Of a stretch of 64,000 bases of DNA, positions 1 to 64,000 are shown in pieces; the first letter of the stretch is position 1; each line of letters begins with the position of its first letter. The notes beneath the pieces are model-generated. The model was not told the origin of the DNA. It ran no database searches and saw only the letters and a list, made by a program, of their open reading frames with translations. The position numbers and the translations under genes are program-made. This DNA comes from Escherichia coli (GTDB taxonomy: Bacteria > Pseudomonadota > Gammaproteobacteria > Enterobacterales > Enterobacteriaceae), in NCBI RefSeq assembly GCF_016903815.1, contig NZ_CP069973.1; one strand, written 5' to 3'.

Positions 1-47
1 TGAAGGAACGCGACACCCTTCACGGACTTTTGAAGTTGATGCTATGA
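1..47 (+). CDS. 3' end of an ORF truncated by the window edge (...KERDTLHGLLKLML*); candidate toxin partner of the next gene
   Basis: In-frame read from window start ends at TGA 45-47, overlapping the ATG at 44-46 of the next gene (ATGA overlap). Confidence 0.3.
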   Translation, partial: KERDTLHGLLKLML

Positions 48-232
48 AAATCAAAGAAATACGCCGCGCTTCAGGGTTGTCACAATCTAAATTTGCCGAA
101 CTTATTTCCGTAAGCGTAGACACGTTGCGTAACTGGGAGCAGGGGCGACGTTCACCGACTGGGCCTGCAAAGGCTTTGCTGCGAGCGATTGCCAATGATC
201 CGCAACATGTGCTGCAGGCACTTAACCGTTAG
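44..232 (+). CDS. XRE-family helix-turn-helix protein, HigA-like antitoxin candidate (62 aa)
   Basis: ORF track; HTH-like stretch GLSQSKFAELISVSVDTLRNWEQGRRSP; 4-nt overlap with upstream ORF. Confidence 0.55.
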   Translation: MKIKEIRRASGLSQSKFAELISVSVDTLRNWEQGRRSPTGPAKALLRAIANDPQHVLQALNR

Positions 233-316
233 AGGCATGGTTATGCCATACAGAAAGCACCAGCATTCAGAACTCCTATGAAAGCGGCATAGTGCCGCCT
301 GCTCAGGAGTTTTACT

Positions 317-529
317 ATGACCCGTAATCGTGCTGAACGTCGCCATCATATGGCGCGATTAAAAAAAATCCGCTGCCGTTATCGCACTGCAGGCGATGGA
401 AGCAAAAAAGCATCAGGTATTTGCTTTCGTACTCCCTGTATTTGTTCTTGTTGGATGTGTGGGCATCGACGCTATCATAATGGTCCCCGCGTATCGGAAA
501 TTCGTGCAAAAGCACGCTATGCGAATTAA
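317..529 (+). CDS. hypothetical small basic Cys/His-rich protein (70 aa)
   Basis: ORF with GGAG 7 nt upstream of ATG; motif CICSCWMCGH; no family recognised. Confidence 0.35.
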   Translation: MTRNRAERRHHMARLKKIRCRYRTAGDGSKKASGICFRTPCICSCWMCGHRRYHNGPRVSEIRAKARYAN

Positions 530-590
530 GGGAAAATGATGAACTATTTTAAGGAAGCACATTTTTAGAACTCTTAACAGGAGACTAAAA

Positions 591-869
591 ATGTCCACGC
601 TTAATACGCGTAAAGATAGGGATCGTAATGGTAAAGCGAAGCCACATAATCATTCAGGGATCCCAACACTTACAGGTAAATGGCGTCACCCTTCAATGGA
701 TTGTTGGGTAAACTACAGTACACCGGGCGATCATGAATGGAAGCGGCTCTATACTACGCTTCGCCGTCGCGCAGATGATCGACGCCAATGTCATCGGGTA
801 ATGCAGGGGGATGATCCAGAAGGAATCGTCTGGTTCCCGGACTGTTATCCACAAATTTACTACTACTAA
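591..869 (+). CDS. hypothetical protein (92 aa)
   Basis: ORF with AGGAG 7 nt upstream of ATG; no family recognised. Confidence 0.35.
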   Translation: MSTLNTRKDRDRNGKAKPHNHSGIPTLTGKWRHPSMDCWVNYSTPGDHEWKRLYTTLRRRADDRRQCHRVMQGDDPEGIVWFPDCYPQIYYY

Positions 870-1287
870 CAATTAAAGACCGGTTGGTGCGGCACTGACC
901 GGTCAGTTATGAATGGTAGATTTCACCTTAAACCCTGGTGCGGTAAAGCTGCTGACTTTTTCGGGTACACCATCCTGATGAAGCAAATGAACACCCAATC
1001 AAAAAAATATTCTTGAATATAAAATATTTATAGCACCCATAATTCATCCTTATTATTTGTTGTTTCTTTTCTGTAGATGTGTCCCCGCTTAATTAAAAGT
1101 AATAAACCATCCTGGGTTATTACTAAACCATTTTTGAGTAACAATTGAAATAACTGCAACTGTTACATTATCTTTGGATGCCGTCTCGCAAAAACAAAAC
1201 GACATGCAAAAATCCGCTTTTTTTAAATGATTTTTCGGCGTAATTTTCGCACATACATTAATGAGTAATATATGTAAGGTGGTGGTA

Positions 1288-1506
1288 ATGGCGATGAATA
1301 CGGTTTTTCTTCATTTATCAGAAGAGGCAATTAAACGGCTGAATAAGCTTAGGGGCTGGCGTAAGGTTTCACGATCTGCAATTTTACGCGAAGCGGTAGA
1401 GCAATATCTGGAACGTCAGCAATTCCCGGTGCGTAAAGCAAAGGGAGGCAGGCAAAAGGGGGAGGTAGTTGGTGTTGATGATCAGTGTAAGGAGCATAAG
1501 GAATGA
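1288..1506 (+). CDS. yiiE: ribbon-helix-helix (CopG-like) small regulator, 72 aa from internal ATG
   Basis: ORF track 1261..1506; GGTGG Shine-Dalgarno before ATG at 1288; LREAVEQYL motif; position upstream of fdhE. Confidence 0.6.
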   Translation: MAMNTVFLHLSEEAIKRLNKLRGWRKVSRSAILREAVEQYLERQQFPVRKAKGGRQKGEVVGVDDQCKEHKE

Positions 1507-1709
1507 CAAAAATTTTTCATTCTTGAATATAAAAAAACAGATGCCCTTATTCTGGTATTAATACAAGGCTGTTTTACTTGAACTTATAATAACTGCAACT
1601 GTTACATCATATCTGGAAAACGCCTCGCAAAAATAAAAAGTGATGCGTAAATACGCTTTCTTTAAAGATTCGACAAGGGTACTTTTCTCTCCATAGATTC
1701 AAAAATGAT

Positions 1710-1967
1710 ATGGGCGAGATATTTATGAACTCTCTGGCAGGTATAGATATGGGCAGAATTTTACTCAATTTATCGAATGAGTTGTTTAAGCAACTTGATG
1801 ATCTCGAGGTGCAGCATAATCTTCCTCGTGCGGAGCTATTACGGGAAGCGGTAGATCAATACCTGGTAAATCAATCGCAAACAGCAAGAGCCAGTGCTTT
1901 TGGCATCTGGCAAGGGAGTGAGGAAGATGGTGTCCAATACCAGCGTAAGCTGCGCGAGGAATGGTAA
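1710..1967 (+). CDS. yiiF: ribbon-helix-helix protein with VapB-antitoxin-like C-terminus; true start may be 1725 or 1749
   Basis: ORF track; paralogous to the upstream RHH ORF (LREAVDQYL); C-terminal AFGIWQG...YQRKLREEW. Confidence 0.6.
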
Positions 1968-2148
1968 TGGCAAAAAGATTTGGCTATTTGATATCGATAT
2001 TGTTATCGATTTGTTCAGTGTGAAAATTGAGGCAAAACAGGCACTGGCAGCATAGCTTGAGGTGGTAACGCGGAATAAGAGAGATGGTGTCGTCACACCC
2101 TATGAACTGTAATCCGGGCGACCTGCGCCACCCGGAAAACGTCAGAGA

Positions 2149-3078
2149 TTACTCCCCTTCACCCGGAAACAGGAACGGGTTGATGGAACTACGAGCATAG
2201 CCTTCTTGCTCCATTCGCGCGTCCAGTACCAGAGAGGCGAGGTCATCTGCCACGGCTTCAACTTTCGGTTCTTTTTCCTGATAAAGAATCTTCAGGTAAG
2301 TGCCGCAGTCATCGCAGCTTTCGGCTTTAATCGCGGCCTGTTCGTCATCCAGCGACCAGTAATGCAGTTTGCCGCTCTGCTCGCAGTTGCTGCATTTTAC
2401 GCGCACTACGTGCCATTCGGTTTCACACAGGTTGCAGTGCAGGTAACGCAGACCCTGAGTGGTGCCAATTTGCACCATGCTGGACACCGGCATAGAGCCA
2501 CATACCGGGCAATATTGACGTTGTTCGCCGTATTCAGCGCGGGCTTTGCCGGGGATCAGATTAGCCATCTGCGCCCAGTAGAGCGACAGCGCAGCCCAGA
2601 TAAACGGCGCTTTATCGCTGCTGACGGACGAGAAATCAGAGGCAAACAGTGCGCTGGCCATATCTTCCAGCTCCTGAGTCGATGCCTTCTCCAGATTCTC
2701 AATCACTGCCAGCGCCGGGCCGCTCATTTCAGGTTTCAGCTCAGCAATCAGCGCCATCAGCAGCTTTTGCCAGTGCTTATCACGCGGCAGAACGTGAATA
2801 TCCAGCGGGGGCTTGCCCTGTGCGCTGGCTTCTTTAATGCGCGCGGTCAGATCCATCTCCAGCGGATGGTCGTACAGCACCACTTCCTGGGCGTGGGCGA
2901 TAAGCGCAGCAAAGCGCAGGTAATCACCCAGCGGATTATTTTCTGCCAGCTCGCGCAGACGCTCGGCGCGGCGGTTGTATAAATTCTTGAGCCGAGGGAA
3001 CAATAACGGCGGAATCATATCCGCCGTACGTTTCTCGCTCGAACCCAGCTCATCTTGCGGGATTATGCGAATACTCAT
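2149..3078 (-). CDS. fdhE: formate dehydrogenase accessory protein FdhE
   Basis: 309-aa ORF with paired CxxC motifs; recognised sequence; synteny with fdoGHI. Confidence 0.93.
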
Positions 3079-3710
3079 TCAGCTTTCTTTTCCGTTGTCT
3101 TGCGGACCTCACGGTACCAGCGCGGGTGATGTTTCTTCGCCCAGGCGCTGGTAACCCATCCTTCCACCATGGCGGTAATCGTGCCTTTCACCCAAAGGGC
3201 GGCGTAGATATGCACCATGATAACCACAATTAACGCCACTGCGGCAAATGAATGCAGCATTAACGCGAATCGGATCACCGGGATTGAGAAAGCAGGCGCA
3301 AAATAAGGACGCCAGATAATCACGCCGCTCACCAGCAGCAGAACCAGGAAAATAATCGCCGCCCAGAAAACGCATTTCTGACCGAAGTTATAACGCCCGG
3401 TGTCACCTACTTCCTCGTTGACGACGATCTTACGAATATTCTTCGCCCAAAAGATATCATCCCGATTGATTAGGTTGTGATGCCAGTAACGGAAAAACAT
3501 GATGATGAACGAGGCAAACATAACCACGCCGACAAACGGGTGCAGAATTCGCGCCAGCTGCGGTGTGCCCATGATTTGCATCAACCAGTTGAAGGACGGG
3601 AACAAAAAGCCCAGCCCGCTCACCGCCGCCAGGATGAAGCAGAAGGCGGTGATCCAGTGGTTGATACGTTCCGGCGCGGTGTAGCGCACGATGGTGTCAC
3701 GTCGTTTCAT
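3075..3710 (-). CDS. fdoI: formate dehydrogenase-O cytochrome b556 subunit
   Basis: 211-aa hydrophobic ORF overlapping fdoH stop; synteny. Confidence 0.93.
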
Positions 3711-4609
3711 TTGCGCTCCTCGTCTTTCTCTTCGTGCAGATTATTCTCTTCCTCATCCGCACGGTTCGGACCGACACCCACGTAGTGGAAGATACTGGCT
3801 GCGAAGGTAGCCGCAAAGCCAACAGCTGCGAGCGGTTTCCAGATGCCTTTCCAGAATTTCACGGTTTCGCTGATTTCCGGGTTCTCCGGCAAGCCATGAT
3901 ACAGATTTGGCTTGTCAGCATGGTGCAGCACGTACATAACGTGTGTACCACCAACGCCTGCCGGATCGTACAGACCCGCATTGTCGTAACCGCGAGTTTT
4001 CAGCTCCGCCACGCGCTCGCTCGCCAGCGTTTTCATCGACTCTTTCGTACCGAAGTGAATCGCGCCCGTTGGGCAGGTCTTCACGCAGGCCGGTTCTTGC
4101 CCAACCACCACGCGGTCAACGCACAGCGTACATTTGTAGACGCGGTTGTCTTCCGGGTTGAGGCGCGGAATGTCGAACGGACAGCCCGCAATGCAATAAC
4201 CGCAGCCGATGCACTGCTCGGACTGGAAGTCGACGATACCGTTGGCATACTGAATAATTGCTCCTTCCGCCGGGCACGCTTTCAGGCAGCCTGGATCGGA
4301 ACAGTGCATACAGCCGTCTTTGCGGATCAGCCATTCCAGTTTGTCGTTCTGTTCCACTTCCGAGAAGCGCATCACCGTCCACGATTTGGCACTTAAATCA
4401 TTGGGGTTGTCGTACACCCCAATGTTATTGCCGACGGTATCGCGAATGTCGTTCCACTCTGAACACGCCACCTGACAGGCTTTACAGCCGATACAGGTGG
4501 TGACGTCGATGAGTTTCGCCACTTCTTCCTGGAAGTCCCGCGCCTGAGGCGCGGGGGTCAGACCGTTAGTCGCGGAACGACGAATGATATCTTGAGATTG
4601 ATAAGCCAT
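3707..4609 (-). CDS. fdoH: formate dehydrogenase-O iron-sulfur subunit
   Basis: 300-aa ORF with multiple CxxCxxCxxxCP ferredoxin motifs. Confidence 0.94.
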
Positions 4610-4621
4610 ATGTCGTCTCCG

Positions 4622-7600
4622 TTACACCTTTTCCACATTCACAAGGAAGGACTTAAACTCTGGCGTCTGCGTGTTCGCATCACCAACGAATGGCGTTAAC
4701 GTATTGGCAATAAAGCCTTTTTTCGCAACACCTTCATAGCCCCAGTGAATCGGAATACCGATGGTATCGATATCTTTGCCGTTCGCTTTCAGCGTGCGAA
4801 TACGTTTGGTCACCACCGCTTTGGCTTTTATATAGCCACGGTTGGAGGAGACTTTCACTGTATCGCCCTGGGCAATGCCAAGTTTATTCGCCAGCGACTC
4901 ACCGATTTCCACAAACTGCTCTGGTTGCAAAATCGCGTTCAACAGCGCGTGTTTGGTCCAGTAGTGGAAGTGCTCGGTCAGACGATAGGTGGTTCCGACA
5001 TACGGGAACTTATCGGCTTTACCCAATGCTTCGGCGTCGTCTTTAAAGATACGTGCAGCCGGGTTCGAGATAACGTTTGGATGCAGCGGGTTAGTTCCCA
5101 GCGGCGTTTCAAACGGCTCGTAGTGTTCCGGGAACGGACCTTCCGCCATCTTATCGAGGGCAAACAGACGCCCCATGCCTTCCTGCTGCATGATAAACGG
5201 CCCAACGCCACTGCCCGGAGGCGCTGCGCTGTAGTCCGGAATATCCCAGCCGGTCCACTTAGTGCCGTCCCATTTCAGCAACTGACGCTTCGGATCCCAC
5301 GGGTTACCCTGCGGATCTGCGGAGGCGCGGTTATACAGAATGCGGCGGTTAAGCGGCCATGCCCATGCCCAGCCCAGCGTGTTACCGAGGCCAGACGGAT
5401 CGGCGTTATCACGACGCGCCATCTGGTTGCCCTCTGGCGTCCAGCTACCGGCGAAAATCCAGCAGCCACAGGAGGTGGTACCGTCATCGCGCAGTTGGGC
5501 GAACGAGCTAAGTTGTTGGCCTTTCTTGACGATAACCGCACCGGTTGCCGGATCGGTAATATCGGCCAGCGCCTTACCGTTGCTCTCCATCGCCACTTCT
5601 TCCGACTTCGGCTCATGCGGGATGGCGTAGTTCCAGGTCATGTTCAGCACCTGGTCCGGGTTCGCGCCACCCTGTTCGGCATACATCTTGCGCAAGCGCA
5701 GGAAGATACCGGAGAGGATCTCGCCGTCAGTCAGCGCAATCCCAGGGGCGTCCGCACCTTTCCAGTGCCACTGCAACCAGCGACCTGAGTTAACGATTGA
5801 ACCGTTCTCTTCCGCGAAGCAGGTCGATGGCAGACGGAACACTTCGGTCTGGATCTTCGACGAGTCAACTTCGTTCAGCTCACCGTGGTTCTGCCAGAAG
5901 TTAGAGGTTTCAGTGTTCAGCGGGTCGATGGTGACGAGGAACTTCAGTTTCGACAGACAACCGATCACTTTGTTTTTGTTCGGGAATGAGGCAACAGGGT
6001 TAAAACCCTGGCAGATATAGCCATTGACCTTGCCTTCTTTCATCATCTCGAAGTATTGCAGGACGTCGTAGCCTTTATCCCACTTCGGCAACCAGTCAAA
6101 GCCCCAGCTATTTTCCGCCGTCGCTTTATCACCAAAGAAGGCCTTCATCATAGAGACGAAGAATTTCGGGTAGTTGCCCCAGTAGTTTACCTGGCCTTCC
6201 AGCAGCGGTTTTGGCGTGTTGGCGGTAAGGTAGGTTTGCAGATCGGTCTGCTTCTCGCTTGGCAGCGTCATGTAACCCGGCAGGCTCTGCGACAGCAGCC
6301 CCAGGTCCGTCAGCCCCTGAATATTGGAGTGACCGCGCAGGGCGTTAACGCCGCCGCCGGCCATCCCCATATTGCCGAGCAGCAGCTGGATCATCGCCAT
6401 CGTACGAATGTTTTGCGCACCAACGGAGTGTTGCGTCCAGCCGAGGGCATACAGGAACGAGGCAGTTTTATCGTGTGCACTGGTTTCGGCGATGTATTCG
6501 CAGACTTTCAGGAACGCGTCTTTTGGCGTACCACAGATGTTTTCAACCACATCTGGCGTGTAGCGGGAAACGTGCTGTTTCAGCAAGTTCCACACGCAGC
6601 GCGGATGTTGCAGCGTGGTATCGCGTTTGGCGAAGCCGTTTTCGTCCAGTTCGTAAGTCCAGGAGGATTTATCGTACTTGCGTTTTTCCGCGTCGTAGCC
6701 GGTGAACAGGCCATCTTCAAAGCCGTAATCCTCACGCACGATAAGGCTAGCGTTGGTATAGGCTTCGGTATATTCGCGGTTGAATTTTTCATTGTTCAGC
6801 AGGTACAGCAATACGCCTGACAGGAAAGCAATGTCAGTACCGGAACGAATAGGGGCATAGTAGTCAGCCACCGCCGCCGTACGCGTAAAGCGAGGATCGA
6901 TCACAATCAGCTTCGCGCCGTTGTGAATTTTGGCTTCCATCGCCCAGCGGAACCCGACCGGGTGAGCTTCAGCGGCATTACCGCCCATCACCACGACGAG
7001 GTTGGCGTTCTTGATGTCGACCCAGTGGTTGGTCATCGCACCGCGACCAAATGTTGGAGCAAGACTTGCTACCGTTGGTCCGTGTCAGACACGCGCCTGG
7101 TTGTCGACCGCGAGCATCCCCAGCGCGCGGGAGAATTTTTGCGTTAAATAGCCGGTTTCGTTACTCGACGCGGAAGCACAAAGCATCCCGGTGGAGAGCC
7201 AGCGGTTAACAGTCACGCCTTCGGCGTTTTGCGCAATGTAGTTAGCATCGCGGTCTTCTTTCATCAGTTTGGCGATGCGATCAAACGCCTCTTCCCAACT
7301 GATTTGCTGCCATTTATCAGAACCTGGCGCACGGTATTCCGGAAACTTCAGACGGCTTTCGGAGTGGATGAAATCCACCAGGCCAGCGCCTTTCGGACAA
7401 AGTGCACCGCGGTTGACCGGGTGATCCGGATCGCCTTCGATATGGAAGATAGATGCTTTGGCGTTTTTTGCTCCGTCACCGAGGCTGTACATCAACAGCC
7501 CACAGCCTACGGAACAATAGGTGCAGGTATTACGGGTTTCGCGGGTGCGCAGCAGTTTATACTGCCGGGTTTCCGCGAGTGCTACGCTGGGTGCAAAACC

Positions 7601-7672
7601 CAGTGCCGCTGCCGTGGTGCCTGCCATACCGCCAGCGCAGATCTTAAAGAACTGCCTTCTGCTGACCTGCAT
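4622..7672 (-). CDS. fdoG: formate dehydrogenase-O catalytic subunit, selenoprotein; in-frame UGA (Sec) at 7085..7087
   Basis: Track ORFs 7085..7672 and 4622..7036 are in one frame separated only by TGA; Tat-like RRQFFK N-terminus; reading continues HGPTVASLAPTFGRGA-MTNHW after the UGA. Confidence 0.93.
7040..7084 (-). promoter_or_regulatory. candidate SECIS stem-loop directly 3' of the fdoG UGA
   Basis: mRNA after UGA contains GCAAG-U-CUUGC nested within GACCAA...UUGGUC. Confidence 0.5.
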
Positions 7673-7865
7673 GGATTGCTCCTTGTTTCGACATTGTCAC
7701 GTCCCATTTACATTCGCTTGCTGCGTGTGCAGGGAGTGGGAGTTATTTTTCTTTGCGGAAGGGGCCGCAAAGGTCCAGAATTGGCTCAATTTCCCTCCAT
7801 CCAGGAAGGGTTTGTAACAGAATACCATAATGTTGGTGTGTGTGTTCTTATCTGGTTAAGAGAAA

Positions 7866-8699
7866 GTGAAAAAAACACAGCAAAAAGAAATCGAAAATGT
7901 GACAAATGTCACAGGTGTTCGTCAAATTGAGTTATGGCGGCGTGATGATTTACAACACCCACGGTTAGATGAGGTCGCGGAAGAAGTTCCCGTTGCGCTG
8001 GTCTACAACGGCATTTCGCATGTGGTGATGATGGCGTCGCCCAAAGACCTTGAGTACTTTGCGCTCGGTTTTTCGCTTTCCGAGGGGATTATCGAAAGTC
8101 CGCGCGATATCTTCGGTATGGATGTCGTTCCTTCCTGTAATGGTCTGGAAGTGCAAATTGAGCTTTCCAGCCGCCGCTTTATGGGGTTGAAGGAGCGCCG
8201 CCGGGCGCTGGCGGGACGTACGGGCTGTGGCGTATGCGGTGTAGAACAGCTTAACGATATCGGTAAACCGGTGCAGCCGCTGCCGTTCACCCAGACGTTT
8301 GATCTCAACAAACTGGATGATGCATTACGTCATCTCAATGATTTCCAGCCAGTGGGGCAACTGACTGGTTGTACTCACGCCGCTGCATGGATGTTGCCAT
8401 CTGGCGAACTGGTCGGCGGGCATGAAGACGTGGGTCGCCATGTGGCGCTGGACAAACTGTTAGGCCGCCGGTCACAAGAAGGGGAAAGCTGGCAGCAAGG
8501 TGCGGTACTGGTTTCCAGCCGTGCCAGTTATGAAATGGTGCAAAAGTCGGCGATGTGCGGCGTAGAGATTTTGTTTGCGGTGTCTGCCGCGACCACGCTT
8601 GCTGTAGAAGTGGCTGAGCGCTGTAATCTGACACTGGTAGGTTTTTGTAAACCGGGTCGGGCAACGGTTTATACCCATCCGCAGCGTTTGAGCAATTAA
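7866..8699 (+). CDS. fdhD: formate dehydrogenase sulfurtransferase/accessory protein FdhD
   Basis: 277-aa ORF; recognised sequence; divergent from fdoG. Confidence 0.93.
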
Positions 8700-8706
8700 T
8701 TAAAAT

Positions 8707-8747
8707 AAGTCCTGCGATATATATTAAATTGCAGGACTTATTCATTT
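8707..8747 (+). terminator. hairpin after fdhD (AAGTCCTGC...GCAGGACTT followed by a T-rich tail)
   Basis: 9-bp perfect inverted repeat with 15-nt loop, seen directly. Confidence 0.5.
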
Positions 8748-8748
8748 C

Positions 8749-9429
8749 GTGAATTTTATTATTTTATTTATAAACAAAGCGCGTGTAGTGGCGTTAACGC
8801 CTGCGCTGCAACCTATTGATGGCGTGGCGGTAAGTTATATTGATACTGCCGTGGCGTTGGGTAATACCATTAACGAAATGGATAAATATTACACCCAGGA
8901 AAATTATAAAGACGATGCGTTTGCGAAAGGGAAAACGCTGCACCAGACATTCTTAAAAAATCTTGAAGCCTTTGAACCTGTAGCAGAATCTTATCATGCG
9001 GCGATTCAGGAAATTAACGATAAGCGCCAGCTTGCGGAACTGAAAAATATTGAACAAAGAGAAGGGAAAACATTCCACTACTACTCTCTGGCAGTCATGA
9101 TTTCAGCGAAACAAATTAATAACCTGATTTCGCAAGAGAAGTTTGATGTTGATGCGGCAATGAAGAAAGTCTCTGAACTGGAAACGCTGGTGGCGCAGGC
9201 CAAAGAAGCGGATAAAGGCGGTATGAATTTCTCGTTCATTAATTCGGCAGACCAGTATCAACTCGAGGCTAAAAAATATGTTCGCCGCGTCAGAGATAAA
9301 GTTCCGTACTCTGACTGGGATAAAGAGCAACTTCAGGATGCAAACACAAGCTGGATGGTCGACGACTCATTTCCGCGAGCGTTACGCGAGTACAACGAAA
9401 TGGTCGATGACTATAATAGCCTGCGTTAA
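8749..9429 (+). CDS. yiiG: YiiG-like protein (DUF3829 family as I recall); ORF looks 5'-truncated
   Basis: 226-aa ORF with GTG start, no SD, no signal peptide, begins 2 nt after the fdhD terminator; I recall K-12 YiiG as about 351 aa. Confidence 0.55.
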   Translation: MNFIILFINKARVVALTPALQPIDGVAVSYIDTAVALGNTINEMDKYYTQENYKDDAFAKGKTLHQTFLKNLEAFEPVAESYHAAIQEINDKRQLAELKNIEQREGKTFHYYSLAVMISAKQINNLISQEKFDVDAAMKKVSELETLVAQAKEADKGGMNFSFINSADQYQLEAKKYVRRVRDKVPYSDWDKEQLQDANTSWMVDDSFPRALREYNEMVDDYNSLR

Positions 9430-53000: not shown

Positions 53001-54178
53001 AACGGGTATGGCGGCGTGAACGGGACCTGACGGGCTGGATGTCGCTGTCATGGAAACCGGAAGTGCCCTGGTACGGCTGGGACGGCGACCGGCTGACCAC
53101 AATACAGAACGACAGAACCCGCATCCAGACGGTTTATCAGCCGGGGAGCTTCACGCCACTCATCAGAGTTGAAACTGCCACCGGTGAGCTGGCGAAAACG
53201 CAGCGCCGCAGCCTGGCGGATGCGCTTCAGCAGTCCGGCGGTGAAGACGGTGGCAGTGTGGTGTTCCCGCCGGTGCTGGTGCAGATGCTCGACCGGCTGG
53301 AAAGTGAAATCCTGGCTGACCGGGTGAGTGAGGAAAGCCGCCGCTGGCTGGCATCGTGCGGCCTGACGGTGGAGCAGATACAAAACCAGATGGACCCGGT
53401 GTACACGCCGGCGCGAAAAATCCACCTGTACCACTGCGACCATCGCGGCCTGCCGCTGGCGCTTGTCAGCACGGAAGGGGCAACAGAATGGTGCGCAGAA
53501 TACGATGAATGGGGCAACCTGCTGAATGAAGAGAACCCGCATCAGCTGCAGCAGCTCATCCGCCTGCCGGGTCAGCAGTATGATGAGGAGTCCGGCCTGT
53601 ATTACAACCGCCACCGCTATTATGACCCGCTGCAGGGGCGGTATATCACTCAGGATCCGATTGGGCTGAAGGGGGGATGGAATTTTTATCAGTATCCGTT
53701 GAATCCGATCTCAAATATAGATCCATTAGGATTATATGAATTTAAATCAAAAAATATAGATGATATTGGAATATTTGCATTGGCAATGTGTAATGGAGAA
53801 TCAATTAACGAGAATAAAGAATATGGTGGGCTAATATGTAAGAAGCAAGGTGAATATTTCCCCATGAATCCGATAAGTTCAAATGATAATGATAGTGTAG
53901 ACTTGCGAAATATAAAATGCCCTGAAGGTTCAGAGAGAGTAGGCGATTATCACACTCACGGTTTTTACTCTGACGATAAAGGCAATAAAGTAACAAAAGA
54001 AAATGATGTTTATGATAGTCTAAATTTTTCAAGCAAAGATTTAACGAATTCTTATATGAATGGAATGGGAAAAAAAGAATACAGTAGTTACTTGGGAACA
54101 CCAAATAACACCTATCTAAAATATAATCCCAAAGCTAAAGGGAATGGAGTTACAATTATCAGGCAAGGGAGTAATTAA
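50006..54178 (+). CDS. Rhs-family polymorphic toxin (1390 aa): RhsA-like N-terminus, YD-repeat core, AT-rich C-terminal toxin tip
   Basis: N-terminus [17 protein letters not shown]...; many YD/RYxYD repeats; core-end motif [27 protein letters not shown] near aa 1243; composition switch near 53690. Confidence 0.9.
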
Positions 54179-54179
54179 A

Positions 54180-54503
54180 ATGAAGGTAATACAATGTTGT
54201 TATTTCCTTGCTTTAGTCTCCAGTCATTTAATGGCTGGAGTTATGAGTGATGACAATATATTTTTAAGTAATTCGGATTTAGCTGCTTTATATTGTGTGG
54301 CTAAAATATTTCCAGATGGAGAAAATATTTTAATATATAAAGTAAATATAATTAATGCTAGTTCAAAAAAAGATGTATTTTTTTATGAAAGCCCAACATC
54401 AACCCACAATGACATAATGGGGGGCGGGGGAATGTCATATGCCTATGAATATGATGTAAAATATAATATATGTCATTTGAGAAAAAAGAGCAGAATGAGG
54501 TAA
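54180..54503 (+). CDS. putative cognate immunity protein (107 aa from MKVIQCCYFLALVSS...)
   Basis: ATG 1 nt after the rhs TAA (TAAaATG); GGGAG SD inside the rhs 3' end; same AT-rich composition as the toxin tip. Confidence 0.5.
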   Translation: MKVIQCCYFLALVSSHLMAGVMSDDNIFLSNSDLAALYCVAKIFPDGENILIYKVNIINASSKKDVFFYESPTSTHNDIMGGGGMSYAYEYDVKYNICHLRKKSRMR

Positions 54504-54759
54504 AAATCTTTGGCTGTGTATTCAGTCTGGTAATCATCCAAGGAAAGCTCATCAGAAGGGTGATGACTCCAATTAGTAGAACATATATTTTCGATAAAAG
54601 CACCGATGACTTTTTCATGAAGTTCTACAGAACGCGAGAAACAGATGGTTCTGCGGGCCAGACGTTTGATTCGGGTTCTCAGGGGCAGATTGTTACGCTC
54701 AATGGGTGATGCTGCCAACTTACTGATTTAGTGTATGATGGTGTTTTTGAGGTGCTCCA

Positions 54760-55035
54760 GTGGCTTCTGTTTCTATCAGCTGTCCCTCCTGTTCAGCTAC
54801 TGACGGGGTGGTGCGTAACGGCAAAAGCACCGCCGGACATCAGCGCTATCTCTGCTCTCACTGCCGTAAAACATGGCAACTGCAGTTCACTTACACCGCT
54901 TCTCAACCCGGTACGCACCAGAAAATCATTGATATGGCCATGAATGGCGTTGGATGCCGGGCAACCGCCCGCATTATGGGCGTTGGCCTCAACACGATTT
55001 TCCGCCATTTAAAAAACTCAGGCCGCAGTCGGTAA
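54760..55035 (+). CDS. insA: IS1 InsA
   Basis: 91-aa [25 protein letters not shown]... Confidence 0.92.
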
Positions 55036-55457
55036 CCTCGCGCATACAGCCGGGCAGTGACGTCATCGTCTGCGCGGAAATGGACGAACAGTGGGGATAC
55101 GTCGGGGCTAAATCGCGCCAGCGCTGGCTGTTTTACGCGTATGACAGGCTCCGGAAGACGGTTGTTGCGCACGTATTCGGTGAACGCACTATGGCGACGC
55201 TGGGGCGTCTTATGAGCCTGCTGTCACCCTTTGACGTGGTGATATGGATGACGGATGGCTGGCCGCTGTATGAATCCCGCCTGAAGGGAAAGCTGCACGT
55301 AATCAGCAAGCGATATACGCAGCGAATTGAGCGGCATAACCTGAATCTGAGGCAGCACCTGGCACGGCTGGGACGGAAGTCGCTGTCGTTCTCAAAATCG
55401 GTGGAGCTGCATGACAAAGTCATCGGGCATTATCTGAACATAAAACACTATCAATAA
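54954..55457 (+). CDS. insB: IS1 InsB reading frame (expressed as InsAB' by frameshift)
   Basis: 167-aa ORF overlapping insA in the -1 frame. Confidence 0.9.
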
Positions 55458-56186
55458 GTTGGAGTCATTACCCGCTCAATGTGCTGAGTAAAAATCTTAC
55501 CAGTCAGATGCTTCTCCTTTGGTAACTCTCTAGCGTAACTACCCCATTCGTCAGTGGTCAACATGCCGATGGTAAAAGGGTAAGCAGCGCCAGCAGTTCA
55601 CGACAGGTTTCATCAGTCCGGGGGCCAAAAGTGTAGGCCAGAACACCACCAGTTTTCGTGTTGTACACGTACCAGAGCCAGTGCTGTCGCGCTTTACTGC
55701 CGACAAAGCTCCATTGCTGACTAAGTTCGCAGATGAGTGCCACATCAGCATGAGCGACCGGGGATGACGTTATTTTTCGTGGCGAGAGTTTTTTAAAGTT
55801 CGGATGACTGTATTAATGCCAATTTTCAGCGTACGGGCAGTATAGCGAACCCCGGCACCGTTGAAAGCCATTTCAGCGATTTGGTCTTTAACTCCTGGTT
55901 TACGGGGCTCGTAACAGTAACTGAGCTGAAATACCCGGTGACAGTCACGGCCGCGGAATCGATCATGTCTTTTGGGGTTCTGCCCGTGACGGTAAACCTG
56001 AACGGACTGGCAACGGGGACAATGAAGGTTAACTGTGACCATGAAACAACCTTAAAAGCGAGTATTATATCCTTAATTCAACTAATTGGAGGCATCACCG
56101 TTTACCGGAGCGACAGCTTGCGGAAAGGTCGTGCAACTACAAAGCAACAAACAGACTACGGCGGGAATTATTTTTTTTATCATCCA

Positions 56187-58611: not shown

Positions 58612-61044
58612 ATGAGTGTGATTGCGCAGGCAGGGGCGAAAGGTCGTCAACTGCATAAATTTGGTGGCAGTAGTCTGGCTGATGTGAAGTGTTATTTGCG
58701 TGTCGCGGGCATTATGGCGGAGTACTCTCAGCCTGACGATATGATGGTGGTTTCCGCCGCCGGTAGCACCACTAACCAGTTGATTAACTGGTTGAAACTA
58801 AGTCAGACCGATCGTCTCTCTGCGCATCAGGTTCAACAAACGCTGCGTCGCTATCAGTGCGATCTGATTAGCGGCCTGCTACCCGCCGAAGAAGCCGATA
58901 GCCTCATTAGTGCCTTTATCAGCGATCTTGAGCGCCTGGCGGCGCTGCTCGACAGCGGTATTAACGACGCGGTGTATGCGGAAGTGGTGGGCCACGGCGA
59001 AGTGTGGTCGGCGCGCCTGATGTCTGCGGTACTTAATCAACAAGGGCTGCCAGCGGCCTGGCTTGATGCTCGCGAGTTTTTACGCGCTGAACGCGCTGCG
59101 CAACCGCAGGTTGATGAAGGGCTTTCTTACCCGTTGCTGCAACAGCTACTGGTACAACATCCAGGCAAACGTCTGGTGGTGACCGGGTTTATCAGCCGTA
59201 ACAACGCCGGTGAAACGGTGCTGCTGGGGCGTAACGGTTCCGACTATTCCGCGACACAAATCGGTGCGCTGGCGGGAGTTTCCCGCGTAACCATCTGGAG
59301 CGACGTCGCCGGGGTATACAGCGCCGACCCGCGTAAAGTGAAAGATGCCTGCCTGCTGCCGTTGCTGCGTCTGGATGAGGCCAGCGAACTGGCGCGTCTG
59401 GCGGCTCCCGTTCTTCACGCCCGTACTTTACAGCCAGTTTCTGGCAGCGAAATCGACCTGCAACTGCGCTGTAGCTACACGCCGGATCAAGGTTCCACGC
59501 GCATTGAACGCGTGCTGGCCTCCGGTACTGGTGCGCGTATTGTCACCAGCCATGATGATGTCTGCTTGATTGAGTTTCAGGTGCCCGCCAGCCAGGATTT
59601 CAAACTGGCGCATAAAGAGATCGACCAGATCCTGAAACGTGCTCAGGTGCGCCCACTGGCGGTTGGCGTGCATAACGATCGCCAGTTGCTGCAATTTTGC
59701 TACACCTCAGAAGTGGCCGACAGTGCGCTGAAAATCCTCGACGAAGAGGGATTACCTGGCGAACTGCGCCTGCGTCAGGGGCTGGCGCTGGTGGCGATGG
59801 TTGGGGCGGGTGTCACCCGTAACCCGCTGCATTGCCACCGCTTCTGGCAGCAACTGAAAGGCCAGCCGGTCGAATTTACCTGGCAGTCCGATGACGGCAT
59901 CAGCCTGGTGGCAGTACTGCGCACCGGACCAACCGAAAGCCTGATTCAGGGGCTGCATCAGTCCGTCTTCCGCGCAGAAAAACGCATCGGCCTGGTATTG
60001 TTCGGCAAGGGCAATATCGGTTCCCGCTGGCTGGAACTGTTCGCCCGTGAGCAGAGCACGCTTTCGGCGCGTACCGGCTTTGAATTTGTGCTGGCAGGCG
60101 TGGTGGACAGCCGCCGCAGCCTGTTGAGCTATGACGGGCTGGACGCCAGCCGCGCGTTAGCCTTCTTCAACGATGAAGCGGTCGAGCAGGATGAAGAGTC
60201 GCTGTTCCTGTGGATGCGCGCCCATCCGTATGATGATTTAGTGGTGTTGGACGTTACCGCCAGCCAGCAGCTTGCTGATCAGTATCTCGATTTTGCCAGC
60301 CACGGTTTCCACGTCATCAGCGCCAACAAACTGGCGGGAGCGAGCGACAGCAATAAATATCGCCAGATCCACGACGCCTTCGAAAAAACCGGGCGTCACT
60401 GGCTGTACAACGCCACCGTCGGTGCGGGCTTGCCGATCAACCATACCGTGCGCGATCTGATCGACAGCGGCGATACTATTTTGTCGATCAGTGGGATCTT
60501 CTCCGGCACGCTCTCCTGGCTGTTCCTGCAATTCGACGGTAGCGTGCCGTTTACCGAGCTGGTGGATCAGGCGTGGCAGCAGGGCTTAACCGAGCCTGAT
60601 CCGCGTGATGACCTTTCCGGCAAAGACGTGATGCGCAAGCTGGTGATTCTGGCGCGTGAAGCGGGTTACGACATCGAACCAGATCAGGTGCGCGTGGAAT
60701 CGCTGGTGCCTGCCCATTGCGAAGGCGGTAGCATCGACCATTTCTTTGAAAACGGCGATGAACTTAACGAGCAGATGGTGCAACGACTGGAAGCGGCCCG
60801 CGAAATGGGGCTGGTGCTGCGCTATGTGGCGCGTTTCGATGCCAATGGCAAAGCGCGTGTGGGCGTGGAAGCGGTGCGTGAAGACCATCCGCTGGCATCA
60901 CTGCTGCCGTGCGATAACGTCTTTGCCATCGAAAGCCGCTGGTATCGCGATAACCCTCTGGTGATCCGTGGGCCTGGCGCGGGGCGCGACGTCACCGCAG
61001 GGGCGATTCAGTCGGATATTAACCGCCTGGCGCAGTTGTTGTAA
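58612..61044 (+). CDS. metL: bifunctional aspartokinase II / homoserine dehydrogenase II
   Basis: 810-aa ORF immediately after metB; recognised. Confidence 0.95.
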   Translation: MSVIAQAGAKGRQLHKFGGSSLADVKCYLRVAGIMAEYSQPDDMMVVSAAGSTTNQLINWLKLSQTDRLSAHQVQQTLRRYQCDLISGLLPAEEADSLISAFISDLERLAALLDSGINDAVYAEVVGHGEVWSARLMSAVLNQQGLPAAWLDAREFLRAERAAQPQVDEGLSYPLLQQLLVQHPGKRLVVTGFISRNNAGETVLLGRNGSDYSATQIGALAGVSRVTIWSDVAGVYSADPRKVKDACLLPLLRLDEASELARLAAPVLHARTLQPVSGSEIDLQLRCSYTPDQGSTRIERVLASGTGARIVTSHDDVCLIEFQVPASQDFKLAHKEIDQILKRAQVRPLAVGVHNDRQLLQFCYTSEVADSALKILDEEGLPGELRLRQGLALVAMVGAGVTRNPLHCHRFWQQLKGQPVEFTWQSDDGISLVAVLRTGPTESLIQGLHQSVFRAEKRIGLVLFGKGNIGSRWLELFAREQSTLSARTGFEFVLAGVVDSRRSLLSYDGLDASRALAFFNDEAVEQDEESLFLWMRAHPYDDLVVLDVTASQQLADQYLDFASHGFHVISANKLAGASDSNKYRQIHDAFEKTGRHWLYNATVGAGLPINHTVRDLIDSGDTILSISGIFSGTLSWLFLQFDGSVPFTELVDQAWQQGLTEPDPRDDLSGKDVMRKLVILAREAGYDIEPDQVRVESLVPAHCEGGSIDHFFENGDELNEQMVQRLEAAREMGLVLRYVARFDANGKARVGVEAVREDHPLASLLPCDNVFAIESRWYRDNPLVIRGPGAGRDVTAGAIQSDINRLAQLL

Positions 61045-62138
61045 TCCTGAGCCAGAGAAAGCAGTATTTGCGTAACGCGCCCTGCGGAAAGCGGGGCGCT
61101 GTGAGTAAATACTGCTTGTTTATGTAGCCAGTCGATAAAATGTCTGCTGGTTGCTAAAGAGAGCATTTCTGCTTTGCTGTTATTTCCGCCCGTTAATGCA
61201 CATACCATTTTACGATTTTTGCCCTGAACCCAGAGTTGCCACTGATTTTTCCACCAGCCGTGATAAGTTGTTCCCTGAAAACGCCAGGGCATATTATCGG
61301 TATCGTCAGCTATTTCCTCTTCAATAAACCAAATCTCACCTTGCTGTTGGCGAAACAGATCAGCCCATGCCGTAATAATGGCACCTCTTAAAAAACACTC
61401 GTGTGAAATTACATGTGTTTTTACTGTAGGGAATAAAATATTCAGTACTCTGAAATGCCCGTGTGCAGTGATAACCGGACGCAGAATAACACCTTTAGCA
61501 TTGCGTTTGAGCGCTGCGCTGCCATATTGAATCTCATCAAACTGACTGCGGCGTAGAAATTGTGCTTCGCGCATATCAACGCGTTGTACAATATTACTCT
61601 CGTGTAACTCTGGTTCTGCATTCCCTCTGTATCGATAATGCAGACTTTCTCCAGCCTGATGCTGCGTGTAATTAGTAGAAAGATGAAGAATATTACCGCG
61701 AAGAGCATCAAAACTGATTAAAACATACAGTTTCTGCCCGCCGCTGGCTCCCTGAAATGGCACCAGAAGAGCAACCGTTTCGATTATTTCAGGAGGCGTT
61801 ATTTCTTTCTGATATTGTTTAGGTGTCCAGACTTTTTTGCAGTTACGACATTGAATGCGTTGCGACCCCTGTGGATTGTGGCCATAACAAATCGTCTTTG
61901 TGCCATAACATACCGGGCAGAAATGACCTTTCTCAGTTGCAAAAGTAGATAAGTGAACTGACAACCAGTCACGAAATTGCTGTTCGTCAAACAACGGCGG
62001 GTAACTTCCACATGCCCGACAGTGCAGTGCCGGATAACCCAGTCGATAGTCTGGCCAGCTGTAATCTGTCGATGTTGGTTGCCCTAAATTACGACAACCA
62101 AACGACTTGCAGGCATTAATCGTAAACAGAGTCGACAT
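61008..62138 (-). CDS. hypothetical Zn-ribbon protein (376 aa), possibly transposase-derived; 3' end overlaps metL by 37 nt
   Basis: Long ORF; N-terminal CxxxxC...HCxxC and CPVC...CRNC motifs loosely resembling IS1595-type transposase zinc ribbons; rest unrecognised. Confidence 0.45.
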   Translation of the reverse strand: MSTLFTINACKSFGCRNLGQPTSTDYSWPDYRLGYPALHCRACGSYPPLFDEQQFRDWLSVHLSTFATEKGHFCPVCYGTKTICYGHNPQGSQRIQCRNCKKVWTPKQYQKEITPPEIIETVALLVPFQGASGGQKLYVLISFDALRGNILHLSTNYTQHQAGESLHYRYRGNAEPELHESNIVQRVDMREAQFLRRSQFDEIQYGSAALKRNAKGVILRPVITAHGHFRVLNILFPTVKTHVISHECFLRGAIITAWADLFRQQQGEIWFIEEEIADDTDNMPWRFQGTTYHGWWKNQWQLWVQGKNRKMVCALTGGNNSKAEMLSLATSRHFIDWLHKQAVFTHSAPLSAGRVTQILLSLAQDYNNCARRLISD

Positions 62139-62270
62139 ATATCACCAACGATTTCACAAGGTCGTTGATTTTGTCCGGCAACTATCCCCTGCGGATGTGA
62201 TTACTCTCACATAAATAACTCTTTCAGAACGTAATGTAGCAATCCTTTAAATCACTGAAAGGGACTATTT

Positions 62271-63824
62271 ATGAAAATTAAAATACTTGCTGCGGGTATC
62301 GCATTAACATTGCCGTTCTGGGCTTGCGCCAAAGATGTCACCATCATTTATACCAACGACCTCCATGCGCATGTCGAGCCTTATAAAGTGCCGTGGATCG
62401 CTGATGGTAAACGGGATATTGGCGGCTGGGCAAATATCACTACGCTGGTTAAGCAAGAAAAAGCAAAAAATAAAGCGACATGGTTTTTTGATGCGGGTGA
62501 TTATTTTACCGGGCCATATATCAGCAGCCTGACCAAAGGTAAGGCTATTATCGATATTATGAATACTATGCCGTTTGATGCCGTCACGATAGGCAACCAT
62601 GAATTTGACCACGGCTGGGACAACACATTATTACAGTTGAGTCAGGCAAAATTCCCTATTGTGCAGGGCAATGTTTTTTATCAGAACAGCAGTAAATCAT
62701 TCTGGGATAAGCCATATACCATCATCGAAAAAGACGGTGTGAAAATAGGCGTTATAGGTTTGCACGGTGTATTTGCCTTTAATGACACGGTATCTGCGGC
62801 AACGCGAGTGGGGATTGAAGCGCGTGATGAAATTAAATGGCTACAACGTTATATCGATGAACTTAAAGGCAAGGTTGATTTGACCGTCGCCCTGATCCAT
62901 GAAGGTGTTCCGGCCCGCCAGTCCAGTATGGGAGGCACAGATGTGCGTCGCGCGCTGGATAAAGATATTCAGACGGCAAGTCAGGTGAAAGGGCTGGATA
63001 TTTTGATCACCGGACATGCGCATGTGGGTACGCCGGAACCGATTAAAGTCGGCAATACGCTCATCCTCTCCACTGACAGCGGCGGGATTGATGTGGGCAA
63101 ACTGGTTCTCGACTACAAAGAGAAGCCGCATGATTTTACGGTGAAAAACTTCGAGCTTAAAACCATTTACGCCGACGAGTGGAAGCCCGATCCGCAAACA
63201 AAACAGGTGATCGACGGCTGGAATAAAAAGCTTGATGAAGTGGTGCAACAAACGGTCGCGAAATCGCCGGTTGAATTAAAACGTGCCTATGGTGAATCGG
63301 CTTCCCTCGGGAACCTGGCGGCTGATGCTTTACTGGTAGCGGCGGGTAAAAACACCCAATTGGCGTTAACCAACTCTGGCGGCATTCGCAATGAGATCCC
63401 CGCAGGGGCGATTACGATGGGCGGCGTCATCAGTACCTTCCCGTTTCCCAACGAACTGGTGACGATGGATCTCACGGGTAAACAATTACGCAGTTTGATG
63501 GAACACGGCGCAAGTTTAAGTAATGGCGTTTTACAGGTATCGAAAGGCCTGGAAATGAAGTACGACAGCAGTAAGCCGGTTGGTCAGCGGGTAATCACGC
63601 TGACTCTGAATGGCAAACCGATTGAAGATGCGACGATTTACCACATTGCTACTCAGAGTTTCCTTGCTGATGGTGGAGATGGTTTTACCGCCTTTACCGA
63701 AGGGAAAGCGCGTAACACAACGGGCGGTTATTACGTTTATCACGCCGTGGTTGATTACTTCAAAGCGGGTAACACCATCACGGATGAACAGATCAACGGT
63801 ATGCGCGTGAAAGATATCAAGTAA
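62271..63824 (+). CDS. secreted bifunctional metallophosphatase / 5'-nucleotidase family protein (UshA-like)
   Basis: Signal peptide [20 protein letters not shown]; calcineurin-like motifs DLHAH, GDYF, GNHEFD, GHAH; 5'-nucleotidase-like C-terminal half. Confidence 0.75.
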
Positions 63825-63872
63825 AAGTACGTATTGAGTTGATTCATCTGTTTGTTACCAGTTGATTTTGCA

Positions 63873-63900
63873 GATCCAGTATTCGGCCTACGCGAGGGCG
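63873..63900. repeat. G/C-rich palindrome TTCGGCCT...AGGCCGAA after the phosphatase gene (terminator or REP-like)
   Basis: Seen directly. Confidence 0.45.
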
Positions 63901-64000
63901 CAGGCCGAATCAGATGCCTTAGCATCACCATCCGGTGGCAGGACGTTGTTTTTCGAATAAGCCCAGGTGTCGCTGTGTTGTCAGAATATCAGTCAAAACG

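Follow-up and report, generated by a model that had tools for sequence, protein, structure and literature searches.

Described relatives of the gene considered here include Escherichia coli UshA (PDB 1USH and 1HP1), a periplasmic enzyme of two domains; CD73, a glycosylphosphatidylinositol-anchored, AMP-selective dimer; and the YfkN-type protein of Bacillus subtilis, which combines two catalytic modules with a cell-wall anchor. Closure of the domains before hydrolysis is established for both UshA and CD73. Here we describe a 517-aa member of the same superfamily that is encoded between metL and metF at positions 62271–63824 of a 64,000-nucleotide stretch of E. coli DNA (contig NZ_CP069973.1 of assembly GCF_016903815.1; hereafter, the window). 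We think it probable, though well short of certain, that this gene specifies a periplasmic 5'-nucleotidase that scavenges nucleotides under the control of cyclic AMP (cAMP) and CRP, with the product of a divergently transcribed neighbour as co-regulator.

Two earlier descriptions bear directly on the locus. Residues 19–517 align end to end, with nine substitutions (about 98% identity), to the 509-aa 'Nucleotidase' of PDB entries 3IVD and 3IVE, and the protein therefore already has a crystal structure. We take these entries to be uridine and cytidine complexes named for the CFT073 gene c4898. At the nine differing residues the PDB sequence is matched six times by ATCC 25922 and five times by sequence type (ST) 131; it is the allele of another strain. 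The chromosomal site has been described in silico, in a long form, as 'GR 31 (metL..metF)' of the avian pathogenic E. coli (APEC) strain BEN2908 and other extraintestinal pathogenic E. coli (ExPEC), where the nucleotidase orthologue is ORF (open reading frame) 4394198..4395751 and where domain searches led the authors to infer a part in nucleoside processing and transport (PLoS One 2026, PMC12928451). GR 31 occupies the same site as the genes in the window but contains a Tsx-like channel and two more nucleotidases, whereas the window has a short, two-gene form. The CRP site, the cross-genus synteny and the nature of the fourth gene are not treated in that description (PMC12928451). The enzyme is thus ordinary, an annotated and structurally solved, if biochemically uncharacterised, member of a well-known family. 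By itself it adds little, and it is the neighbouring gene and the control region with its CRP site and palindrome that deserve follow-up.

The gene and its protein have the following features.

62271..63824, + strand: coding sequence of the 517-aa exported 5'-nucleotidase-family protein (ORF list, Pfam, RefSeq WP_000694075.1, match to PDB 3IVD/3IVE)
62271..62330, + strand: signal peptide, aa 1–20, with a predicted signal peptidase I site ACA/KD (from the sequence; cleavage predicted)
62340..63026, + strand: Metallophos domain, aa 24–252 (Pfam PF00149 and residue mapping onto UshA)
63273..63701, + strand: 5_nucleotid_C substrate-binding domain, aa 335–477 (Pfam PF02872), containing R373, F392 and N394

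The ORF starts with ATG, includes its stop codon within these coordinates and carries the generic RefSeq name 'bifunctional metallophosphatase/5'-nucleotidase'; the window is 100% identical to E. coli strain 7/2 (NZ_CP023820). Both domains score above their Pfam cut-offs (Metallophos, 48.1 bits against 21.5; 5_nucleotid_C, 134.6 bits against 23.6, E 4e-39). The N-terminus has the n-, h- and c-regions of a Sec signal peptide followed by an AxA cleavage motif, which is kept among orthologues as A-(C/S)-A-KD, and the alignment of the near-identical PDB construct to our query begins at residue 19. Processing by signal peptidase I after Ala20 and release into the periplasm is the expected fate of such a protein. 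A lipoprotein reading was rejected because Cys19 is replaced by Ser in several orthologues; the Trp at −2 is also unfit for a lipobox. The ratio of nonsynonymous to synonymous substitution rates (dN/dS) is 0.02–0.05 against other alleles and orthologues, and the gene is therefore functional and under strong constraint.

The dimetal motif set (DxH, GD, GNH, H, GHxH) and the His-Asp dyad are complete. Metal ligands D30, H32, D77, N109, H210, H249 and H251 align with UshA D41, H43, D84, N116, H217, H252 and Q254, and the catalytic pair H110/D113 aligns with UshA H117/D120. Within the C-terminal domain, R373, F392, N394, F464 and D470 match UshA R410, F429, N431, F498 and D504; R373 is the counterpart of the phosphate-binding Arg, and F392 and F464 are those of the Phe pair that stacks on the base. 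The protein is thus a bona fide superfamily member with the two-domain architecture of UshA, from which it differs in overall sequence (25% identity), in locus, in control region and in having His251 in place of UshA's unusual Gln254 ligand. ushA itself is a separate core gene located elsewhere and present in 5422 of 5426 complete E. coli genomes.

In a search of PDB sequences, the next-best match after 3IVD/3IVE is the Thermus thermophilus 5'-nucleotidase 2Z1A (E 2.5e-46), followed by the snake-venom and human CD73 5'-nucleotidases (E about 1e-32 to 1e-35), NadN (E 2e-29), UshA (E 2e-23) and the N-terminal domains of CpdB and YfkN (E 1e-12 to 1e-16). 2Z1A, CD73 and the snake-venom enzyme are the best full-length solved matches after 3IVD and are covered in both domains, but they are distant, the alignments are long and gapped, and no specificity can be transferred from them. 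Among NCBIfam models, the best alignment is to the YfkN-type PRK09419 (183.6 bits against a cut-off of 1646), specifically to its 5'-nucleotidase half (profile positions 629–1097); unlike the B. subtilis YfkN-type protein, the 517-aa protein has one module and no anchor. SoxB (TIGR04486, 153 bits against 550), UshA (NF007109, 152 against 600) and NadN (TIGR01530, 134 against 436) score lower, as do the two CpdB models, to which the N-terminal domain alone aligns (NF006938, 101.6 against 486; TIGR01390, 100.3 against 883). Judged by these comparisons, the protein lies nearer the 5'-nucleotidases proper than the CpdB diesterases and is an orthologue of no characterised enzyme.

An earlier note on this DNA, made from its letters, had described a signal-peptide-bearing calcineurin-like phosphoesterase with a 5'-nucleotidase-type C-terminal half, divergent from a zinc-ribbon ORF across 132 bp and distinct from ushA. 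The Sec-type N-terminus, the two Pfam domains, the 376-aa ORF at 61008–62138 (− strand) with the spacer at 62139–62270, and the separate ushA gene all agree with this description. Its label 'UshA-like' is imprecise, since UshA and CpdB are more distant from the protein than are the 5'-nucleotidases of the T. thermophilus, CD73 and YfkN C-half types.

The same fold and catalytic centre serve several chemistries, and the main activity of the protein could conceivably be that of a periplasmic phosphodiesterase or pyrophosphatase rather than a 5'-monoesterase, with cyclic or linear (di)nucleotides, 2',3'-cyclic nucleoside monophosphates (cNMPs), NAD, UDP-sugars or CDP-alcohols as substrates, by analogy to CpdB, NadN or the UDP-sugar hydrolase side of UshA. 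The sub-cut-off scores against the CpdB, NadN, UshA and YfkN models are significant, a relative of the neighbouring gene adjoins a class II cNMP phosphodiesterase and an AphA-like phosphatase, and the several paralogues present in long gene clusters suggest divided substrate specificities. Similarity to the CpdB type is nevertheless the weakest of all (101 bits against 486, with PDB E-values of 1e-12 to 1e-16 for the N-terminal domain only), the closest solved relatives are 5'-nucleotidases, and the C-terminal domain has kept the Phe clamp and the Arg that are typical of binding to nucleoside 5'-phosphates. We consider a main activity of this kind unlikely, and its cyclic-nucleotide diesterase variant the less likely option because the closest relatives are the T. 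thermophilus, CD73 and YfkN C-half 5'-nucleotidases.

Evidence for the proposed cAMP-CRP control comes from the region between the two divergent genes; its elements, and the zinc-ribbon gene itself, are as follows.

62139..62270, no strand: 132-bp divergent control region common to the nucleotidase and zinc-ribbon genes (from the gene coordinates)
62196..62211, no strand: perfect CRP consensus TGTGA-N6-TCACA (TGTGATTACTCTCACA) (pattern count in the window and 35 orthologous spacers)
62232..62237, + strand: predicted −10 element TAATGT of the nucleotidase promoter (TAAnnT conserved in all orthologous spacers; start site predicted)
62258..62264, + strand: Shine-Dalgarno sequence AAAGGGA, 6 nt 5' of the nucleotidase ATG, conserved as GAAAGG(G/A)A
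62168..62173, − strand: predicted −10 element CAAAAT of the zinc-ribbon gene promoter (conserved GATTTTG block)
62146..62167, no strand: palindrome CAACGA-N10-TCGTTG, a candidate operator adjoining the ribosome-binding site of the zinc-ribbon gene
61008..62138, − strand: 376-aa 'cytoplasmic protein', the conserved divergent partner of the nucleotidase (ORF list, profile and context searches)

Conservation of the spacer is strong over 35 loci, which come from more than 10 genera, and exceeds that of the coding sequence of the zinc-ribbon gene. The CRP consensus pattern occurs twice in the window, where 0.07 matches are expected. The half-sites have no mismatch in 25 of the 35 orthologous spacers and at most two in the others, while the 6-bp core takes about 19 different sequences; conserved half-sites around a freely varying core are the pattern expected of a functional CRP site. 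(The other perfect match in the window, at 7898–7913, falls inside a formate dehydrogenase alpha-subunit gene annotated as fdnG and is probably fortuitous.) Relative to the predicted −10 elements, the centre of the CRP site would lie at about −41 of the nucleotidase transcription start site, which corresponds to class II geometry, and ~42 bp upstream of the predicted start site of the zinc-ribbon gene.

The palindrome has one match in the window and is found exactly once per locus in 39 loci, always just upstream of the start of the zinc-ribbon gene. We considered that it might form a hairpin in the 5' untranslated region of that gene. This is the less favoured reading: changes in the palindrome are one-sided and none is compensatory, so that covariation lends no support to an RNA stem, and the predicted start site lies inside the palindrome. 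We prefer to see it as a putative DNA operator for the zinc-ribbon gene promoter, in the position over the predicted start that is typical of operators. Inspection of the spacer by eye gave no convincing Pho box, CytR operator or DeoR operator.

The nucleoside catabolism genes tsx, deo, udp, cdd, nupC and nupG of E. coli are controlled by CRP together with CytR/DeoR. Both the theme of scavenging and the dependence on cAMP-CRP predicted here match these genes, and Tsx and deo-type genes are physically linked to the nucleotidase or to the zinc-ribbon gene family in other genomes. The difference is that the spacer has no convincing CytR or DeoR operator and that the linked candidate regulator comes from another, undescribed family.

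Combining these elements, we propose the following course of events. Nucleoside monophosphates would enter the periplasm through porins and be met there by the exported dimetal enzyme, which most likely strips the 5'-phosphate at its metal centre after domain closure; some di- or triphosphates may be substrates as well. The nucleosides and phosphate so released would be taken up as sources of carbon, nitrogen and phosphorus. Binding of cAMP-CRP to the perfect site would turn on nucleotidase transcription when preferred carbon sources run out, giving an expression pattern like that of the classical nucleoside-catabolism genes, and the zinc-ribbon protein with its predicted transposase fold may act at the conserved palindrome as a dedicated co-regulator. 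The pair would be a module of ancestral enterobacterial origin, placed between metL and metF and since lost by most E. coli, K-12 included. Extended versions of the cluster, in which two or three further paralogous nucleotidases and a Tsx-like nucleoside channel are present, support this scheme.

Several points weigh against it. UshA already does this job in E. coli, which leaves no obvious need for a second, redundant broad 5'-nucleotidase, and the 517-aa enzyme is dispensed with by two thirds of strains. UshA R375 and R379 align with L336 and Y340, with K337 and R338 adjacent, in a part of the alignment that is ambiguous. No NCBIfam equivalog cut-off is reached or approached by the 517-aa protein, and therefore no specificity is transferable from any characterised enzyme. 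The nucleotidase start site and its CRP dependence are predictions from sequence. Longer relatives of the zinc-ribbon protein have, after the zinc ribbon, an extra segment with weak helix-turn-helix matches that the enterobacterial form lacks, which weakens the case for a regulator. Finally, the searchable literature yielded no enzymology, expression or phenotype study of the 517-aa protein or of 3IVD/3IVE. The earlier note had called the substrate unassigned, and in this respect it stands. It had also allowed that the protein might turn out to be a simple orthologue of a characterised enzyme found at this locus in reference genomes; this is partly the case, as the structure 3IVD/3IVE, RefSeq reference genomes with the gene at this locus and GR 31 all exist, enzymology being the exception.

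Three forms of the metL–metF interval occur among the 5426 complete E. coli genomes. An empty, K-12-type allele is found in 3577 (66%), O157:H7 included, and the nucleotidase region in 1844. The short two-gene form accounts for about 22% of E. coli genomes, with the window and ST131 as examples. The remaining type, the long form, is carried by 659 of the 1844 (12% of all genomes), including ATCC 25922, E2348/69, APEC strains and SMS-3-5. Its gene order is metL, Tsx-like channel, 539-aa nucleotidase, 516-aa nucleotidase, zinc-ribbon gene, divergent 517-aa nucleotidase, metF. The 516-aa and 539-aa proteins have signal peptides and intact active sites and are 57% and 68% identical, respectively, to the protein from the window, and the channel is 67% identical to Tsx (PMC12928451). 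In the loci we compared, the extra genes lie at 4410–8557 (locus L004), 936–5081 (L008) and 4611–8758 (L009); the Tsx-like gene of SMS-3-5 is annotated as a pseudogene.

Against K-12, both junctions are clean: homology reaches precisely to the metL stop codon and starts again ~150 bp ahead of the metF start, with ~200 bp of unrelated filler in between. In this empty allele (3269–3616 of the K-12 locus L002, with others like it), the filler is dissimilar to the island and contains a palindrome like those of repetitive extragenic palindromic (REP) elements and a small RefSeq 'hypothetical protein'.

A profile of the zinc-ribbon protein, scanned against about 100,000 species genomes, identified 37 loci. 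Wherever an enterobacterial locus still has its upstream DNA, tblastn shows a divergent 5'-nucleotidase gene 130–180 bp away, and this gene is an orthologue of the window protein (87–99% identity) in all cases except Citrobacter sp. Awk 4, where it is of the 539-aa type. The pair sits between metL and metF in Citrobacter braakii, portucalensis, youngae and werkmanii, in Klebsiella pneumoniae ATCC 13883, oxytoca and spallanzanii, and in Kosakonia, Phytobacter, Superficieibacter, Pseudocitrobacter, Kluyvera, Salmonella enterica subsp. arizonae and E. whittamii. At least 10 other enterobacterial genera have the pair in this slot, with a divergence like that of the flanking core genes. The earlier note had spoken of an 'insertion' downstream of metL, and this part of it must be given up: the pair is not a lineage-specific insertion because the same slot is occupied in at least 10 genera and the K-12-type allele is a single shared deletion. 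The G+C content of the region is 42–47%, against 55–60% for metL, and neither an integrase nor repeats were found at the metL–metF region. The region is not a genomic island, being syntenic across genera with core-like divergence and having a single shared empty variant.

These distributions also bear on the idea that the enzyme is an ExPEC host-interaction factor, which, following the models of Staphylococcus aureus AdsA, streptococcal Nt5e and host CD73, would make adenosine or remove extracellular ATP or dATP and so dampen immunity. The region is present in the ST131, ST73, ST95, ST69, APEC and E2348/69 lineages and absent from K-12 and O157:H7, it is listed among those common to ExPEC strains (PMC12928451), and CD73 is among the nearest solved relatives. 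On the other hand, a plain Sec signal peptide combined with the absence of a surface anchor or secretion signal should keep the protein in the periplasm. The locus is, moreover, syntenic in environmental or commensal Kosakonia, Phytobacter, Kluyvera and Citrobacter, the predicted CRP control and the nucleoside-catabolism context point to nutrition, and the distribution within E. coli fits one ancestral loss, with no need for selection for virulence. A role in host interaction is thus improbable.

Returning to the ancestral module, the simplest history begins with an enterobacterial gene pair; this was followed by one deletion, now dominant in E. coli, and later by the insertion of three genes, which produced the long form. 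Synonymous divergence (dS) between short- and long-form alleles is 1.2–2.0 for the zinc-ribbon gene and 0.15–0.26 for the adjacent nucleotidase, which, together with the shared overlap described below, marks the short form as ancestral and the long form as a later insertion. The same contrast implies a recombination breakpoint in or near the spacer, with the long-form allele of the zinc-ribbon gene having been imported along with the extra genes. The 3' ends of metL (+) and the zinc-ribbon gene (−) overlap convergently by 37 bp (61008–61044). We considered whether this overlap and the C-terminal tail of the zinc-ribbon protein are a scar left by loss of the long form and rejected the idea, both for the contrast in divergence just given and because the overlap is also present in E. 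whittamii, Pseudocitrobacter, Citrobacter and Klebsiella; at 22–37 bp in these genomes, it is old and tolerated.

The outcome is a clean three-allele polymorphism in E. coli (the K-12-type deletion, the ancestral two-gene form and the five-gene form with a Tsx-like channel) that sets lineages rich in ExPEC apart from K-12 and O157. Strains with these alleles are a natural experiment, in which one could ask whether additional periplasmic nucleotidases help cells to grow on nucleotides or extracellular DNA.

The pair is not confined to this slot: Enterobacter, Pluralibacter and Silvania have it at other chromosomal positions, and some E. coli have it as a second copy. A second architecture seen at other loci consists of the zinc-ribbon gene divergent from a nucleotidase of the 517-aa type, one or two of the 516-aa type, a Tsx-like gene and a nucleotidase of the 539-aa type; it is found in Enterobacter, E. 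albertii (loci L005 and L006), some E. coli and Citrobacter (also L017, L019 and L039). In E. albertii this cluster is followed by a small radical-SAM gene, and E. coli SCPM-O-B-8794 has both the cluster and the metL–metF pair. A periplasmic arylsulfotransferase gene adjoins the pair in Enterobacter sp. ECC-175 and Cronobacter (L003 3043–4569; L056 8615–10141), which could reflect a link to sulfated or 3'-phosphoadenosine compounds or could be a coincidence. Salmonella enterica Typhi, Newport and subsp. arizonae contain high-identity fragments or truncations of the nucleotidase and zinc-ribbon genes (P0088, P0100; L042 8001–8729), which suggests that the pair is decaying in Salmonella.

The zinc-ribbon neighbour has two 4-Cys zinc ribbons of the InsA/IS1595 type. 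No Pfam domain scores above threshold in it, the second 4-Cys motif giving a weak match to IS1/IS1595 N-terminal zinc-binding models. A profile search of 1.8 billion representative proteins recovered 219 relatives, about 50 of them full length at 400–530 aa. Zn_ribbon_InsA is matched by 16 of 54 aligned family members (best E 4e-8). Residues invariant in the family are eight Cys, R197, H228, H246, E247, W296, W300 and N367, among which no DDE triad is obvious, and no DDE Pfam model gives a match. An AlphaFold model from a 16-sequence alignment reached a pLDDT of 37; modelling succeeded once distant relatives from the profile search were included, and the core is predicted to adopt an RNase H-like DDE-transposase fold.

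The predicted fold, together with the IS1/IS1595-type zinc ribbon, raises the question of whether the locus is a recent mobile element in which the zinc-ribbon protein is an active transposase and the nucleotidase its passenger. The absence from K-12, the contrast in G+C content with metL, and the presence of the pair at other sites (Enterobacter, Pluralibacter and Silvania) or in a second copy (some E. coli) would fit. Most of what we observe speaks against it: the metL–metF position is conserved over many genera with divergence comparable to that of flanking core genes, there is a single copy per locus, the comparison with K-12 gives clean breaks, one at the metL stop and one before the metF promoter, the dN/dS of the neighbour is 0.09–0.17, the canonical DDE triad is missing from the family-invariant residues, and relatives hold fixed positions beside nucleoside operons. 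We regard a recent mobile element as very improbable indeed. Compared with the IS1 InsA and IS1595 transposases, the neighbour differs in being single-copy, syntenic, under purifying selection and devoid of a conserved DDE triad; despite its zinc ribbon and predicted DDE-type fold, it is not an active transposase of this type, and it behaves like a domesticated gene rather than an insertion sequence.

The surroundings of distant relatives in other gamma-proteobacteria are strikingly alike, with the family member placed divergently beside genes for nucleoside or nucleotide use. A relative in Motilimonas is flanked on one side by an operon of deoD/udp-like, transaldolase and deoB genes plus nupC and on the other by genes for Tsx and adenosine deaminase. 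The relative from another lineage already mentioned adjoins genes for a porin, an AphA-like class B acid phosphatase and a class II cNMP phosphodiesterase; a third adjoins deoB, deoD-like and NupG-like genes; and a fourth adjoins nupC-deoC-deoA-deoB-deoD, with TatD and a Bmp-type nucleoside ATP-binding cassette transporter nearby. Family members in Cronobacter and Vibrio are divergent from orthologous nucleotidases, and the context of one relative is uninformative. From this association and from the protein's architecture, we infer that the neighbour is a domesticated transposase that regulates genes for nucleotide and nucleoside scavenging.

More tentatively, as a serious possibility that we would not yet call probable, the neighbour may belong to an undescribed family of transposase-derived regulators that has the nucleotidase as its conserved target, acts with CRP at the palindrome and perhaps senses a nucleoside through the former catalytic pocket. 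Across the gamma-proteobacteria, the targets of such a family would include periplasmic nucleotidases, Tsx-type channels, deo/nup operons and cNMP phosphodiesterases. Were the neighbour a true regulator, it would represent a new transcription-factor family and explain the control of accessory nucleotidase clusters.

A defence or phage origin of the pair was considered and rejected, as PADLOC returned no matches and PHROGs returned only a family of unknown function for the nucleotidase and a weak zinc-ribbon match for the neighbour.

One further feature lies downstream of the nucleotidase gene.

63881..63910, + strand: GC-rich hairpin with a 9-bp outer stem (fold of 63822–63940)

This hairpin, ATTCGGCCT...AGGCCGAAT, lies 57 nt past the nucleotidase stop codon, is stable and is without a U-tract. 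It may be REP-like or a terminator of unusual type, and the z-score of the 119-nt region folded (63822–63940) is only −2.0. Farther upstream in the window, at ~52900–56100 (1–3143 of locus L001) and ahead of yiiX-metJ, are a gene for the core protein of an RHS element, accompanied by a dsORF, and a frameshifted IS1H transposase gene, and the G+C content falls to 28–31% around 54000–54600.

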